Shown here piece after piece: positions 1 to 50,853 of a stretch of 50,853 bases of DNA; the first letter of the stretch is position 1; each line of letters begins with the position of its first letter. This DNA is from Escherichia phage BEBK14. The notes under the pieces were generated by a model that searched no databases, was not told where the DNA came from, and worked only from the letters and a program-made list of their open reading frames with translations. The DNA lies in sequence record MN158214.1; one strand, 5' to 3'. Made by a program: the position numbers and the translations under genes.

Positions 1-41
1 CCCCCCGTGCCTGACGTTGCAGCGTTCAAAAAATCTTTCAT
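1..41 (-). CDS. partial CDS, 5' end only (continues beyond window start)
   Basis: ATG at 39-41 on minus strand with AAGAGG RBS 7 nt upstream (RC of 49-54); frame open to window edge. Confidence 0.3.
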   Translation of the reverse strand, partial: MKDFLNAATSGTG

Positions 42-7149: not shown

Positions 7150-7166
7150 TTAGCAAAAAGTGCTAT
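7150..7166 (-). promoter_or_regulatory. 17-bp box copy (variant TTAGCA; no -10 partner)
   Basis: between terminator 7095..7118 and RBS/ATG of fibre gene; orientation opposite to flanking genes. Confidence 0.35.
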
Positions 7167-7183
7167 ACAGGAGAAAATTACAG

Positions 7184-9145
7184 ATGGCAATTTATCGCAA
7201 AGGTCAAGCGTCAATGGACGCTCAAGGCTATATAACTGGCTACGGGACGAACTGGCGTGAGCAGTTAACGCTGATCCGTTCCGGCGCAACCATTATTTTT
7301 CTGACTCAGCCGCTACAGGCCGCAGTTATCACCGAAGTGGTCAACGATACTAGCATTCGAGCAATCACCACTGGTGGTGCTGTTGTTCCCCGTTCAGACT
7401 ACATAATCTTGCTTCATGACTCGTTAACTGTTGATGGCCTGGCGCAAGACGTAGCGGAAACATTGCGCTACTACATGGGGAAAGAGTCGGAGCTTGCTGG
7501 ATTTATTGAGATCATCAAGGATTTTGATTGGGATAAGTTACAGAAGATCCAAGAAGACGTAAAGACAAATGCTGACGCAGCAGCAGCAAGCCAGCAGGCA
7601 GCTAAAACCAGCGAGAATAACGCGAAGACAAGCGCAACAAATGCAGCGAATAGCAAGAAAGGCGCTGATACTGCAAAGGCTGCCGCTGAATCCGCGCGCG
7701 ACGCTGCAAACACTGCAAAGACTGGCGCTGAAGCAGCAAAGTCTGGCGCTGAATCCGCGCGTGACGCTGCGAACACTGCAAAGGCAGGAGCTGAAAGTGC
7801 GCGAGATCAAGCGGAGGAATACGCAAAGCAGGCCGCAGAACCTTACAAGGACTTATTGCAACCGTTGCCGGACGTGTGGATACCATTTAATGATTCCCTG
7901 GATATGATTACCGGATTCTCGCCGTCATACAAAAAGATTGTCATAGGTGATGATGAGATCACGATGCCAGGTGACAAGATTGTTAAGTTTAAACGTGCAT
8001 CAACCGCTACTTACATTAACAAATCAGGTGTTTTTACAGTTGCAGCAATTGATGAACCACGTTTTGAAAGAGATGGATTGCTGATTGAAGGGCAGAGAAC
8101 AAACCATATGATTAATGCTTCAACTCCTGCTGGTTGGGGTCGCTCAGCTTCTGTGCAAGTGACAGCGAATACAGATTCATTTGGATTTCTTTATGGTCGC
8201 TTCGCTCCAGATCAGTCTACTGTTGGCAAAACAGATGCGCTAAACCTTGCATCTGTTATTTCTAATCACAGCCTTGATACATCTGGCAATGAAAAAAATG
8301 TTACTGCTTCATGCAGATTTAGATCAGATAAAGATGTTAGATTGAGGGTAAGATTTGCCGCTGGCGATGATATTGGTAGTATAGCATTCGCTGGAGATGC
8401 TTACATAAAACTTAAAGATCTTTCAGTTCAAAAAACTGGAGGTGCTGCAAACAGAATTAATGTTGAGGTTTACACTGATGATCTTGCTGGATGGAATATT
8501 GCAATTGTTACATTCCAGGCAATAAAAAATAAGGTAAACGCTCAGTTTCAAATATCTCCAGTCTCTGCTTATGCCGAAGGTGATTATCTTGAATTGTCAA
8601 CCCCTCAAGTTGAATTGGGATCTGGTGCTTCTTCTTATATTCAATCAGGTACGACACCAGCCACAAGGGCAAGCGATATGGTTACAGTGCCAATAAAAAA
8701 CAACCTTTACAATTTGCCGTTTACAGTTCTTGTGGAGGCTCATAAAAACTGGAGTAGAACGCCAAATGCTGCGCCTCGTGTTTTCGATACTGGAGGTCAT
8801 CAATCTGGTGCGGGAATTATTCTTGCTTTCGGGTCTGCCGAAGGCGATGCTGATGGATTCCCTTATTGCGATATAGGTAAATCAAACAGAAGGGTTAACG
8901 AGAATGCGAAACTAAAAAAGATGATCATAGGAATGAGAGTAAAGAGTGATTACAATACTTGTTGTGTAAGTAATGCCAGAATATCAAGCGAAACAAAAAC
9001 GGAATGGAGATATATAGTATCAACGGCTACTATAAGGATTGGCGGACAAACAAGTACAGGCGAACGCCATCTTTTCGGGCACGTTAGAAACTTCCGTATA
9101 TGGCACAAGGCGCTAACAGATCATCAATTGGGGGAAATTGTTTAA
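7184..9145 (+). CDS. tail fibre protein
   Basis: Ala/Lys-rich coiled-coil repeats (AESARDAANTAK x2) followed by large beta-rich C-terminal domain. Confidence 0.55.
   Translation: MAIYRKGQASMDAQGYITGYGTNWREQLTLIRSGATIIFLTQPLQAAVITEVVNDTSIRAITTGGAVVPRSDYIILLHDSLTVDGLAQDVAETLRYYMGKESELAGFIEIIKDFDWDKLQKIQEDVKTNADAAAASQQAAKTSENNAKTSATNAANSKKGADTAKAAAESARDAANTAKTGAEAAKSGAESARDAANTAKAGAESARDQAEEYAKQAAEPYKDLLQPLPDVWIPFNDSLDMITGFSPSYKKIVIGDDEITMPGDKIVKFKRASTATYINKSGVFTVAAIDEPRFERDGLLIEGQRTNHMINASTPAGWGRSASVQVTANTDSFGFLYGRFAPDQSTVGKTDALNLASVISNHSLDTSGNEKNVTASCRFRSDKDVRLRVRFAAGDDIGSIAFAGDAYIKLKDLSVQKTGGAANRINVEVYTDDLAGWNIAIVTFQAIKNKVNAQFQISPVSAYAEGDYLELSTPQVELGSGASSYIQSGTTPATRASDMVTVPIKNNLYNLPFTVLVEAHKNWSRTPNAAPRVFDTGGHQSGAGIILAFGSAEGDADGFPYCDIGKSNRRVNENAKLKKMIIGMRVKSDYNTCCVSNARISSETKTEWRYIVSTATIRIGGQTSTGERHLFGHVRNFRIWHKALTDHQLGEIV
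7685..7783. repeat. 63-bp period direct repeat inside tail-fibre gene
   Basis: GCTGAATCCGCGCG(C/T)GACGCTGC(A/G)AACACTGCAAAG at 7685..7720 and 7748..7783. Confidence 0.7.
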
Positions 9146-26589: not shown

Positions 26590-26635
26590 TCCATAAATAA
26601 AAAGGGGAACCCTTAAGGCTCCCCATGTTATCTAA

Positions 26636-27610
26636 TTACACAGCCTTTTTCAAGCCAGTAATTAGAACCATCGTAAACGGACGGTAAATTGTAAGGCCAG
26701 TGCACTTTGAAGTACAAGGAACTTTAAAATGCAGATCTTTCGGCTGTGCAGGCAGCATATTGAATGCCTCCGGGATCTCAATACTCATGTTCATTGGATC
26801 TTTTTCGTAAACCAGGCAGCCTTTAGTGCCTTTGCCGTCAATATCCTCAAGCTCTGCAATGGAGTCGATGGTGATACCGTCGTTTTGCTTCTGGAAGTAT
26901 TCCAAATAGCTTTCAGTGGTATTTTCCATTCGAACCGTAAGGACTTTACGCATAGACGGCGGAATCAGGATGTTGGTCGCGCGATGCTGACCTTTGGTTA
27001 CTTCCTCGATCGTTTCGATTGCAGTCTCCAGTTCATCGCTTGCAACTTTTGGAAACTTGGTGTTTCCGTCGTTACTCAGCCATCCTTTTGACGTGATTTT
27101 AGTCAGGTTTGGATGATCGAAAACGGAAACGATCTTATGAGGCTTGGAACCTTTGAAAACCAGGAAGTTAATAAGCTGATCATGTGCATTCTGCGCTGCG
27201 TTAGCCTTGCGAGTAGAAAGGCTTTTGCCAGTTCGCTGACCTGCTTTGATTTCGTCAATTGAGATCAGGAAAGCGTTACCCATGCGGAACACTTTGCCAA
27301 ACTCAGAAGTCATAAGAGCGTCAACGGTCGGCAGGTCGTCGGTGTAGTCTGCAATAATTTTCGCGTAACCAACTTTATCAAAAGTCTGATACTCGAAAGT
27401 TTTGTCGGTGTCGCTCAGTTCATTGGTGACAGGGAAGACGCGAAGCGCAGAACCCGCTGGGTACTCTTTTTCGTAAGCAGTGGATCGGATTTTGTGTAAC
27501 TCCTGCGCAGTCCAAATACCCATGTCGGAAGCGTCACCCTTGATACCTTGCAATTGCAGGTGATTAGACACAATGGAAGCGTCTAGCTCATCATATTTTT
27601 TCTTTGTCAT
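26636..27610 (-). CDS. major capsid protein
   Basis: 324 aa; start MTKKKYDELD after AGGAG RBS; preceded by hairpin and box copy. Confidence 0.7.
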   Translation of the reverse strand: MTKKKYDELDASIVSNHLQLQGIKGDASDMGIWTAQELHKIRSTAYEKEYPAGSALRVFPVTNELSDTDKTFEYQTFDKVGYAKIIADYTDDLPTVDALMTSEFGKVFRMGNAFLISIDEIKAGQRTGKSLSTRKANAAQNAHDQLINFLVFKGSKPHKIVSVFDHPNLTKITSKGWLSNDGNTKFPKVASDELETAIETIEEVTKGQHRATNILIPPSMRKVLTVRMENTTESYLEYFQKQNDGITIDSIAELEDIDGKGTKGCLVYEKDPMNMSIEIPEAFNMLPAQPKDLHFKVPCTSKCTGLTIYRPFTMVLITGLKKAV

Positions 27611-27629
27611 GATTTTTCTCCTATAAAAA

Positions 27630-27652
27630 AGGCTGTTAACAAGTAACAGCCT
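27630..27652 (-). terminator. hairpin + T-run between box copy and capsid RBS
   Basis: AGGCTGTTAAC...GTTAACAGCCT with A-run on plus. Confidence 0.45.
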
Positions 27653-27656
27653 CATG

Positions 27657-27700: not shown

Positions 27701-28543
27701 TTAAGTGCCTACTGTTTTCCTGAACACTATGTCAAACTGATCAGCAACTCCAGAACCGTCGTTTGCAGTCCAGTTAACATTAACATGACCACCTACTCCA
27801 GTAGGAACTACAAGACCAGTGCGACTAACGCTTGCAACCTTTGGATCTTGCTCGTTTGTAATCGTCCACTGCCCCGTTTTGTCGTCAGCCCATGTTGGAA
27901 CAACGGTTACTTTTAGCTGAACGTTGTCAATTGTTTCTGTTCCCTCTACATAACCATTTTCGGCCTCAATGATCGCACCAGTAAGAAGGTATTTTCTATG
28001 ATGAAGCGGCGTTATTCTGACTCCGACTATGTTCATTGTTTCATCAAACTTGTAAAAGTCACCAGTAAAAATCCAGCCATCGACGATTTCATCCCCATCA
28101 CTACTTGCTACAAAGCCATCATTGTTAACATAAACAAGATCGCCATGTTCAGGCGCAGACTCAATCGTTTGAGTTAAGCACCATACAACCCCTCTTGTTA
28201 AAATGTTGATAGAATCTCCTTCCTTATAGTCAGAGTATCCGTCTTCCTCGTTAACCGTTGTCGTGATATTGCTCCTTATGGCAACACCAGCAACCACAGC
28301 ATCACCCTCTTTGTGATCAACAAATATGTTGTAACCTTCAACTCTTTCTTTAAAGAAAACAACCTTTCCAGCAATGATGGATTCAGAACCGCAAACTCCA
28401 ACTCTTTCTTTAAAGAAAACAACCTTTCCAGCAATGATGGATTCAGAACCGCAAACTCCAGTGCCATCAATGTTGTAGCGAGTAGAATCAACCAGGCATC
28501 CAGGACAGGAAAGCCCCATAACAGATGAGTAATCTTTAGCCAT
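27701..28543 (-). CDS. structural (head decoration-like) protein with C-terminal Ig-like domain
   Basis: N-terminus paralogous to 28595..29104; Ig-like C-terminal segment; contains 60-bp tandem duplication. Confidence 0.5.
   Translation of the reverse strand: MAKDYSSVMGLSCPGCLVDSTRYNIDGTGVCGSESIIAGKVVFFKERVGVCGSESIIAGKVVFFKERVEGYNIFVDHKEGDAVVAGVAIRSNITTTVNEEDGYSDYKEGDSINILTRGVVWCLTQTIESAPEHGDLVYVNNDGFVASSDGDEIVDGWIFTGDFYKFDETMNIVGVRITPLHHRKYLLTGAIIEAENGYVEGTETIDNVQLKVTVVPTWADDKTGQWTITNEQDPKVASVSRTGLVVPTGVGGHVNVNWTANDGSGVADQFDIVFRKTVGT
28341..28460. repeat. perfect 60-bp tandem duplication (2 copies), in-frame within 27701..28543
   Basis: 28341..28400 identical to 28401..28460; duplicates 20 aa GVCGSESIIAGKVVFFKERV. 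Confidence 0.9.
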
Positions 28544-28568: not shown

Positions 28569-28588
28569 AAGGCGCTCAAGCGAGCGCC
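28569..28588 (-). terminator. rho-independent terminator candidate
   Basis: AGGCGCTCAAGCGAGCGCCT preceded by A7 on plus. Confidence 0.55.
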
Positions 28589-28594
28589 TTAATT

Positions 28595-29104
28595 TTAGCT
28601 TGGGAAGACTTGAACTTCAAACAAAGTCAACAAATCGCTACCAGTACCAAAAGTGGTTTTATCTCCAGTGTAGATCCAGTTCGTATTGATGGCACCAGCA
28701 CTTTTCACCTTGCCAGTGTTTTCATCAATTTTCACAGGCTCGCGATATTGTGGAGTTTTTGATTTATCAGAATCATCGCCAACCATCCAGACTCTGCCCT
28801 CGGTCATAACGTTGATTCCGCCGCCAGCCTCATAAACCATTCGCCCATTATCAGCCGTGGTTTGAAAGTGCGAGCGGATGCCAACGCCATAAGGAACATC
28901 ACCACCACCAGAAATAACGTCGATCAGCTTATTACCCATTGAGTCAACGCCTTTTAGCTTAACAGCCACGCCAACGAGGATTGGGATGCCGTCTTCCTTG
29001 TCAAGAACGCAAGCGCCGTCGATGTTATAAGCGGAAGTGTCAGACACCTGACCAGGAAGTGCGCGCGCCATTACGTCAAAGTAACTTGCTCCAATTTTAG
29101 CCAT
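28595..29104 (-). CDS. structural (head decoration-like) protein, paralog
   Basis: shares YNIDG...VAGVA N-terminal region with 27701..28543. Confidence 0.45.
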   Translation of the reverse strand: MAKIGASYFDVMARALPGQVSDTSAYNIDGACVLDKEDGIPILVGVAVKLKGVDSMGNKLIDVISGGGDVPYGVGIRSHFQTTADNGRMVYEAGGGINVMTEGRVWMVGDDSDKSKTPQYREPVKIDENTGKVKSAGAINTNWIYTGDKTTFGTGSDLLTLFEVQVFPS

Positions 29105-42528: not shown

Positions 42529-42990
42529 TCATTTCTCCTCGTTAACAAGATTGCGGATCATTTCCTGGTAGCGGCTTATTCCTTCGCAAGCTCCAGCCAG
42601 TTTATCGCCTTGCATATCGGTAACGTTTGGCATTGATGCAAGAATGCGAGCGGCGAACTTTTCTACCGCCTTTGCCTGGACGGCTGGCAAGTCTTCGCTC
42701 GTGATCACCTTGCGCTTAACGTCGCGATTCAGGCTGAAAACGTAAAACTTATCGTCTTCCGTTTCTTCCGTTCTGATTCGCACCTTTCCAACCGCTTTCA
42801 CTTCCGGCACGCGGTTGATTATTGTGCGGCTGTATGCCTGATTCTTTGTCACCTTGTAGTAGTCGTCGCCGTTTAACATTCCGGCAAGGTCGAGAACTGA
42901 CATTTTATGCTCTACAATCTCGCCGCTTGCAAGGCGTCGACCAAGCTCTCGCAACCAGTCGCAATAGTCTTTCGATGTTTTCTGACTCAT
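42529..42990 (-). CDS. hypothetical protein
   Basis: AGGAGG RBS; first gene of leftward early transcript from divergent region. Confidence 0.45.
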   Translation of the reverse strand: MSQKTSKDYCDWLRELGRRLASGEIVEHKMSVLDLAGMLNGDDYYKVTKNQAYSRTIINRVPEVKAVGKVRIRTEETEDDKFYVFSLNRDVKRKVITSEDLPAVQAKAVEKFAARILASMPNVTDMQGDKLAGACEGISRYQEMIRNLVNEEK

Positions 42991-43021
42991 TGTCATTCCT
43001 CCTGTTGGTCAGTTGCAGGCC

Positions 43022-43430
43022 ATTATAAGTGCTATTTTATGCGTGTCAATGTTTATTTTGTCCGTATAACGTTCGCGTCCTGTTCGCGTTGCCGAAGTTT
43101 TGAGAGAATCACTACATAACCACATGATTTGCAATAAGTTTTTACCGCTTGTTTTCTTTCTGTTCGCGCTGTTAGCGCAATATCGCAATAAAAGTATATA
43201 TACATACTCATTCCACCAGGCGCGCAACTATCCATATATATACCAACAAAGCGACACCGCAACCATCACATACCACACTAACAACGCTAACAAGAAATAA
43301 CACATAAATATATACATAAATAAATATTCTTTATTTTCAATGTATTATAAGGGATTTATTTTGTTTTTTGCGTTCGCAATACATTGAAAAACAGCGCGGA
43401 AACATGTCGCCCTGAAACGCGAACACGCAC
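43022..43430. other. AT-rich divergent control region B with GTTCGCG repeats (possible origin/operator region)
   Basis: GTTCGCG at 43071, 43082, 43162; CGCGAAC at 43418; ATACATAAATAAATATTCTTTATTTT block; no convincing ORF over ~720 bp. Confidence 0.55.
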
Positions 43431-50191: not shown

Positions 50192-50679
50192 TACAGATCC
50201 CTCATGCAGTATTTAAACTCAACCGCGCGACGGTTGCGTAAACCTTTAGAGCGTTCTTTCTTTCCGGTTTTAGGATTCGTGAATTTATCCCACCGCCATA
50301 ACTGCTGGCACGCTTCCGGCAATCTGCCCTGATTAATCAGTTTAAGCATTGTCGAATTGCGGAATGCACCCACACCAGCGTTAAAAGTGAAACTATACAT
50401 CGCCGCTCTCATCGTGGCTGGGATTTCAACCTTCACGCGCTTGTCTACTTCATCCTTCGCCACCTTGATATGTTTTGCCAGTAGCGCATCGCATTCGCGC
50501 TTTGTGTAGGTCTTGCCGATAATCACATCTTTTCCGGTGATTCCGGCGCATACCGTCCAGACTCCGGCAATATCTTTATATGGCGTGTATCTGATCCCTT
50601 CGATTTCCTCAAGAAGTGGAGAAGTAAGAGCAAGCGCAGCGCCGATGGCGACGGCGACGACGCTATTTCTTGCGCTCAT
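50191..50679 (-). CDS. endolysin, GH24 lysozyme with SAR-like N-terminus
   Basis: lysozyme-like core; weakly hydrophobic Gly/Ala-rich N-terminal segment. Confidence 0.7.
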
Positions 50680-50853
50680 TATTTACCCCTAATTTCAATT
50701 GCTTTTTTAAAGTCACCACTATCAAGCGCCTTCTGGAAGGCTTTACTATCACGCCACCGCAGATAAGCGCCCCACACGCCGAAAATAGCCATCAATACGA
50801 AGCTGGCAATTGCAATTGCAGTTTGTCCGGTTACTGCTCCCGTGATTGATGCA
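50679..50853 (-). CDS. holin, partial (N-terminus beyond window end)
   Basis: frame open to window edge; hydrophobic segment then charged C-terminus; stop overlaps endolysin ATG (TAATG). Confidence 0.5.

Follow-up and report, generated by a model that had tools for sequence, protein, structure and literature searches.

Does the perfect 60-bp tandem duplication in the genome of Escherichia phage BEBK14 reflect a real mutation in a capsid gene, or was it introduced when the genome was assembled? BEBK14 has a complete, circularly closed, Warwickvirus-like (Drexlerviridae, Tempevirinae), T1-like coliphage genome, which we analyzed as one stretch of 50,853 nt (the window). The first-pass annotation had offered a very recent event, a population polymorphism and an assembly artifact as explanations; these are still the right ones, and the sequence alone cannot separate them. 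On balance, the evidence presented here somewhat favors a real, very recent, strain-private and tolerated tandem duplication, which has reached fixation, or at least high abundance, in the lysate that was sequenced.

Results

The tandem repeat

Positions 28341-28400 and 28401-28460 match at every base, both by direct reading and by script, and Tandem Repeats Finder reported a repeat at 28339-28460 with a period of 60, 2.0 copies, 100% matches and a score of 244, which bears out the perfect tandem identity noted previously. The period-60 identity spans 62 positions, and related phages possess 62 nt in place of 28339-28460; hence, the duplication is 60 bp in length, with a 2-nt CA microhomology at its junction. 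The units are given below in codon register, which shifts them by one base from the coordinates first reported, an offset that is immaterial because the repeat is periodic.

28339..28460, no strand assigned: whole periodic stretch, 2 x 60 nt plus the 2-nt CA microhomology (Tandem Repeats Finder, period-60 run, alignment)
28400..28459, minus strand: copy 1 of the 60-nt unit in codon register, aa 29-48, GVCGSESIIAGKVVFFKERV
28340..28399, minus strand: copy 2 of the 60-nt unit in codon register, aa 49-68, identical peptide GVCGSESIIAGKVVFFKERV

Both copies translate to the same peptide, and the proposal of an in-frame duplication of 20 residues was thus correct. The sequence across the duplication junction is GCAAACTCCAACTCTTTC, and the junction tryptic peptide VGVCGSESIIAGK is exclusive to the two-copy protein. 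Identity of 60 adjacent bases cannot arise by chance, and a script found this to be the sole long perfect direct repeat in the window, the next longest being 25-26 nt. Within each unit lies a perfect palindrome of 14 nt, TTTCTTTAAAGAAA (28345-28358 and 28405-28418), and the duplicated palindromes are able to pair with each other in single-stranded DNA. Because pairing between the two palindrome copies dominates the structure obtained by folding the DNA around the repeat, the folded DNA is uninformative about the ancestral sequence.

A second, imperfect tandem repeat is found elsewhere in the window, at 7655-7796 within the ORF 7160-9145 (plus strand), where a 63-nt unit is present in 2.3 copies with 83% identity. 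The encoded repeats are rich in alanine (…AKTGAEAAKSGAESARDAANTA…) and fall in the N-terminal portion of a tail-fiber-like protein of 661 aa, whose C-terminal portion (about 8117-9113) diverges from that of phage BabyEgg.

The gene and its product

The repeat lies within a gene with an ATG at 28543 and a stop codon at 27701-27703, the product of which is 100% identical to GenBank QGH77343.1, a 280-aa "hypothetical protein [Escherichia phage BEBK14]".

27701..28543, minus strand: T1 gp48-type minor cement/decoration protein gene, 280 aa (260 aa in relatives)
28019..28534, minus strand: Phage_cement (PF22758) beta-tulip domain, aa 4-175, which holds the duplication (Pfam, Foldseek)
27746..27925, minus strand: Big_2 Ig-like domain, aa 207-266 (Pfam; 27.2 bits, cut-off 22.8)

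Pfam assigned the Phage_cement domain with a score of 73.2 bits against a cut-off of 27, along with a match of 67.6 bits to PF23982 (XM1_gp53_minor_capsid). Sequence searches of the PDB matched the T1 and FCWL1 capsid entries (9kmg/9kzj), in which the matched chains are the 158-aa "cement protein II" (T1 gp49) and the 255-aa "BIG2 domain-containing protein" (T1 gp48, 9kzj_H). Residues 13-266 of the BEBK14 protein align with T1 gp48 up to residue 237 of the latter, and phmmer E-values for T1 gp48 and the FCWL1 decoration protein gp29 were 5e-12 and 3e-10, respectively. An AlphaFold model of a one-copy orthologue (pLDDT 85.4) matched the T1 and FCWL1 cement proteins in Foldseek with TM scores of 0.77-0.84, including 0.77-0.78 to T1 gp48 and FCWL1 gp29, and gave weaker matches to Pam3 gp6 (8hdt_G) and the XM1 minor capsid protein (7kmx_a). 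In this model, residues 1-23 form a low-confidence, non-globular segment ahead of the beta-tulip. Based on the Pfam, PDB and fold matches together with gene order, the gene encodes a gp48-type minor cement/decoration protein; it is the orthologue of phage T1 gp48 and an ordinary member of the T1 gp48/Phage_cement family. The prediction of a capsid-associated structural protein with an Ig-like domain was therefore sound, as was the placement of the duplication (aa 29-68) within the N-terminal domain.

Genes of this type are variously labeled "putative scaffolding protein" or "hypothetical protein" in related genomes. Public assemblies often carry truncated gp48-type alleles of 118-188 aa, without the Ig domain; one of 180 aa (P0131) occurs on 255 contigs, and another of 188 aa (P0007) is carried on a 50-kb contig. 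These alleles hint that the Ig-like part, perhaps even the whole protein, is dispensable, and some of them may represent truncations at record starts or contig edges.

Genomic context

The gene order (head maturation protease, gp49-like, gp48-like, major capsid protein [MCP]) is identical in the relatives of BEBK14.

28595..29104, minus strand: T1 gp49-type major cement protein, 169 aa, upstream paralogue and presumed trimer partner (Phage_cement, 82.9 bits)
26636..27610, minus strand: MCP gene, directly downstream (PF09950, 180.6 bits; PHROG 264)
28569..28590, minus strand: terminator-like hairpin between the gp49-like and gp48-like genes, outside the duplication
27629..27653, minus strand: terminator-like hairpin between the gp48-like and MCP genes
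26604..26624, minus strand: terminator-like hairpin after the MCP gene

The gp49-type paralogue consists of a cement domain only and matches "cement protein II" of 9kmg/9kzj. In relatives, its gene has been labeled "putative zonula occludens toxin", "HtjA" or "putative preneck appendage protein". By analogy with T1, the gp48-type and gp49-type proteins of BEBK14 may assemble as 1:2 heterotrimers.

Terminator-like hairpins bearing T-runs flank the gp48-like gene on both sides. An attenuator preceding this gene would fit the 360:60 ratio of gp49 to gp48 in T1. A terminator immediately before the gene of the most abundant protein, MCP, is odd, although transcription might resume ahead of the MCP gene from promoter-like hexamers at 27682-27654 and 27639-27612.

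Copy number in related phages

BEBK14 is 98-99% identical to phages Jahat_MG145, MatMar, WaterSpirit and BabyEgg. The comparison of one-copy and two-copy alleles among relatives, which had been put forward as a check on the duplication, revealed one copy in every relative. Each of the 19 phage records spanning this site carries a single copy (~1041 nt, vs. 1101 nt in BEBK14), and the same records annotate the gp48-type gene as 783 nt, encoding 260 aa. Alignment with BabyEgg, MatMar, Jahat_MG145 and PeterMerian showed an exact 60-nt gap and otherwise no local difference.

Protein searches led to the same result. In a search of 5.8 billion protein clusters, full-length orthologues were 258-262 aa in length, with one of 271 aa, and no length variation was observed at the duplication site among orthologues down to 44% identity. 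Clustering at 90% identity would conceal a two-copy allele, and the members of such clusters were therefore listed individually; among the members listed, only QGH77343.1 was 280 aa and the others were single-copy (260 aa). The exact one-copy protein was found on nine contigs from ENA, Logan and NCBI, and eight independent contigs from these sources have a single copy. The closest contig, Logan SRR11808702, is 99.67% identical to BEBK14 over 20.8 kb and possesses one copy.

A junction-specific 30-mer had no match in IMG/VR, JGI metagenome contigs or GTDB genome contigs, with two degenerate positions allowed in the JGI and GTDB scans. The exact 280-aa protein was absent from the contig index, as was its gp49-like neighbor, used as an anchor. 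The fragment from K60 to the C-terminal end, which would be expected if a k=31 assembler broke at the repeat, was likewise absent from this index. The duplication is already present in the deposited BEBK14 record, where it is unremarked, and is private to that record. Because all of the relatives are one-copy, it is younger than the split of BEBK14 from its 99.67%-identical relative.

Our literature search found no paper naming BEBK14 or the MN1582xx accessions, a Belgian GenBank batch that includes BEBK14, BEK7, BEK12A, BEK1-23, BEC3, BEK12B and BEK2-2. Several records named "Campylobacter phage A1xx" (MG0656xx, host given as C. jejuni) are 77-90% identical to BEBK14, which suggests a misassigned host or contamination.

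Structure of the duplicated block

In the one-copy AlphaFold model, the first strands of the beta-tulip comprise residues 24-31, 35-37, 41-48 and 51-55. The duplicated block (residues 29-48) lies just past the N-loop and takes in the final three residues of b1 followed by b2 and b3 in full. With strand b1 cut by its breakpoints, the block is neither a clean hairpin nor a clean structural unit. It also holds residues that are invariant in the orthologue alignment and belong to the core (C, E, S, G, K and V).

A profile search of 1.84 billion representatives recovered 83 family members, which we aligned to the profile. The stretch from C31 to G39 is the main length-variable site of the family in this region, ranging from 6 to 21 residues, with 7 in the BEBK14 protein, and the block thus contains a site that tolerates insertions. 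Loop insertions were found in P0034 (+14), P0030 (+10) and three other representatives (+7), and these are unrelated sequences rather than repeats. The length of residues 23-31 is almost fixed across the representatives. Perfect internal repeats occur in two representatives. In P0061, 48 aa covering the N-loop and the first strands of the beta-tulip are duplicated in tandem, and the C-terminus is garbled and aberrant; in P0033, a 60-aa repeat recurs at a spacing of 99 aa and resembles a looped short contig. Both of these repeats are probably assembly products.

In the two-copy AlphaFold model, copy 2 occupies the native position (pLDDT ~84-90) and residues 28-46 are disordered (<50), an arrangement that is not evidence of which copy is used, because it partly reflects alignment gapping. 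Mean pLDDT fell from 85 in the one-copy to 76 in the two-copy model, and four of the five two-copy models scored 58-67, with the caveat that AlphaFold is no predictor of stability. The models fit a two-copy protein that could fold with a floppy bulge and might be destabilized, and it is plausible that the extra 20 residues bulge out.

Discussion

Origin of the duplication

Slippage or unequal annealing between two imperfect sites 60 nt apart, GTAACCTTCA and GCAAACTCCA, may have caused 60 nt to be copied a second time. The two sites match at 7 of 10 bases and have a common CA end; this quasi-homology at the breakpoints has an empirical p of ~0.04 for a statistic that was picked after the data had been seen. 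The 2-nt microhomology by itself is uninformative, since 18% of breakpoints would be expected to show it by chance. Relatives annotate an Erf-like annealing protein and exonuclease VIII, which could aid both the formation of the repeat and its reversion. Because 60 is a multiple of three, the frame is kept and a 280-aa protein would be made, in which the end of b1, b2 and b3 of the beta-tulip would be present twice. Any in-register combination of the identical copies could rebuild the native fold, and the 20 redundant residues would then protrude as a bulge, for which the C31-G39 loop is the most plausible site. The protein belongs to the low-copy accessory parts of the head (60 per head in T1, where gp49 homotrimers take up the remaining threefold sites), and for this reason the phenotype would most likely be neutral to mildly deleterious, without gain of function.

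Real event, mixed population or artifact

Several features of the record are as expected for a real event. The length of the repeat is in frame, the repeat is internal and away from the contig end, and in comparison with its closest relative BEBK14 shows only two single-base homopolymer indels, both apparently intergenic by sequence context. A probable sister study, which does not name BEBK14 and which we connect with it from the matching country and hosts, used 2x250 MiSeq reads and CLC Genomics Workbench (PMC7494930). Reads of 2x250 would span the 122-nt array. Conversely, the two-copy number comes from a single deposited assembly and searches of very large collections turned up no second instance of the allele. 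The invariant core residues inside the block, the cut through b1 and the drop in pLDDT also count against a real and tolerated duplication.

The main alternative is that the phage is single-copy and that contig ends sharing a 60-nt overlap, possibly the two ends of a circularly assembled contig, were joined without being merged, perhaps with later rotation of the sequence. Perfect identity and strict uniqueness among all relatives would be expected of such an assembly or finishing error, the junction is carried by no independent assembly, and an in-frame length has a one in three probability by chance. In addition, the other perfect internal repeats of public family members (2 of 83 representatives, P0061 and P0033) look artifactual, and the probable sister study itself cautions that repeat regions are prone to assembly mistakes (PMC7494930). 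Against this origin, the repeat lies ~22 kb from the nearest record end, and the rest of the genome is without assembly-type errors. A length of 60 is also unusual for an assembler overlap; overlaps from SPAdes have odd k values, e.g. 55, 77 or 127. By reasoning, a de Bruijn assembler cannot generate junction k-mers that are absent from the reads. A check for an overlap left by circularization was negative: the ends of the window neither overlap each other nor coincide with the start of any related record, and they are contiguous on BabyEgg (42985/42986), inside the holin gene. The linear record therefore interrupts the holin gene (50679-50853 plus 1-41, minus strand), and the BabyEgg holin gene (42945-43160) maps across the ends. 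Because the start within the holin gene is arbitrary, the ends are contiguous and no relative starts there, we see no sign of deliberate re-orientation. The sibling records BEK7, BEK1-23 and BEC3 are each 51,031 nt in length with differing start points, which suggests that circular sequences were trimmed consistently in this batch. We regard an assembly or finishing artifact as unlikely, although it carries real weight, and we favor a real event over it.

A real duplication could also be limited to part of the lysate. The two-copy form would then be a sub-population that arose during propagation, the assembler would have taken the longer path, and the type of the phage would be one-copy. A perfect 60-nt tandem repeat is expected to be genetically unstable, and the Erf-like annealing protein and exonuclease VIII annotated in relatives are in keeping with such a mixture. 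By reasoning, the de Bruijn graph would be identical for a mixed population and for one with two copies throughout, and the two-copy allele is absent from every natural sample examined. Consensus callers that rely on read mapping would normally favor the majority allele, however, and we consider this mixture improbable. Copy-number variation of a contingency or VNTR type, by which a surface protein is varied, is suggested by the surface exposure of the decoration protein and by the overlap of the block with the length-variable loop of the family. Exactly one copy is nevertheless found in all relatives, from 99.7% to 44% identity, with no length variation at the site within the genus; a 60-nt unit present in at most two copies in one genome is no repeat array, and the loop insertions of the family are unrelated in sequence and non-repetitive. 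Because every relative is one-copy, this possibility is rejected as effectively refuted.

Consequences

A real, recent and tolerated duplication, which we prefer, would belong to an ordinary one-off type of mutation. Whether this or possibly an assembly error, the duplication represents no new system or mechanism, and its importance is small beyond curation. If it is real, it constitutes a natural experiment in which 20 residues of the beta-tulip are duplicated and tolerated by a T1-type cement/decoration protein. Such tolerance would be of some use for engineering display sites on capsids, and the duplication would hint at how the loop insertions of the family start. A bolder version, in which the duplication is real, fixed and functional and represents the birth of a beta-tulip loop insertion by tandem duplication before divergence, appears quite doubtful; were it true, 60 gp48-type subunits would gain an exposed 20-residue hairpin, and capsid stability or surface adhesion could change. 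If the repeat is an artifact, QGH77343.1 and the BEBK14 genome contain an error that needs correction.

Comparison with known systems

The T1 head contains 80 gp49 homotrimers and 60 heterotrimers of one gp48 and two gp49 at the threefold and quasi-threefold axes; both proteins are beta-tulips, and gp48 is on the outer surface, with a flexible C-terminal Ig part that points outward and possibly aids adsorption (PMC11945409). T1 gp48 (9KZJ chain H) and FCWL1 gp29 (9KMH) share with the BEBK14 protein the plan of N-loop, Phage_cement beta-tulip and C-terminal Big_2 domain, and their genes stand in the same order (protease, gp49-like, gp48-type, major capsid protein). They are ~28% identical to the BEBK14 protein and, as in every other homologue, their b1-b3 segment is single. 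Pam3 gp6 contacts the capsid mostly through an N-loop of 23 residues, and three subunits form a head-to-tail trimer through the beta-tulip, a general protein-protein interaction module (PMC9942802). Pam3 gp6, E217 gp24 and XM1 gp53 (PF22758, PF23982) belong to the same family as the BEBK14 protein according to Pfam scores well above the cut-offs and Foldseek matches, and the BEBK14 duplication begins five residues past the equivalent of the Pam3 N-loop. Unlike the arrangement proposed for BEBK14, these three proteins form homotrimers only, and they possess neither an Ig domain nor an internal duplication.

The untrimmed-overlap duplications of circular phage assemblies resemble the BEBK14 repeat in being perfect direct repeats of tens of nucleotides that are seen in a single record. 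They are located at record ends or at the point of re-orientation, whereas the BEBK14 repeat is internal, and the record that contains it has clean ends and starts at an arbitrary point. A likeness on the protein side is the engineered tandem-repeat insertion in T4 lysozyme from the Matthews laboratory, in which one copy is reportedly native and the redundant copy loops out. There, an exact duplication is accommodated in a folded domain, much as AlphaFold suggests for the BEBK14 protein. The T4 lysozyme case concerns a helix in an engineered enzyme, whereas that of BEBK14 concerns beta-strands in a natural capsid protein, which is known from its sequence and a model.
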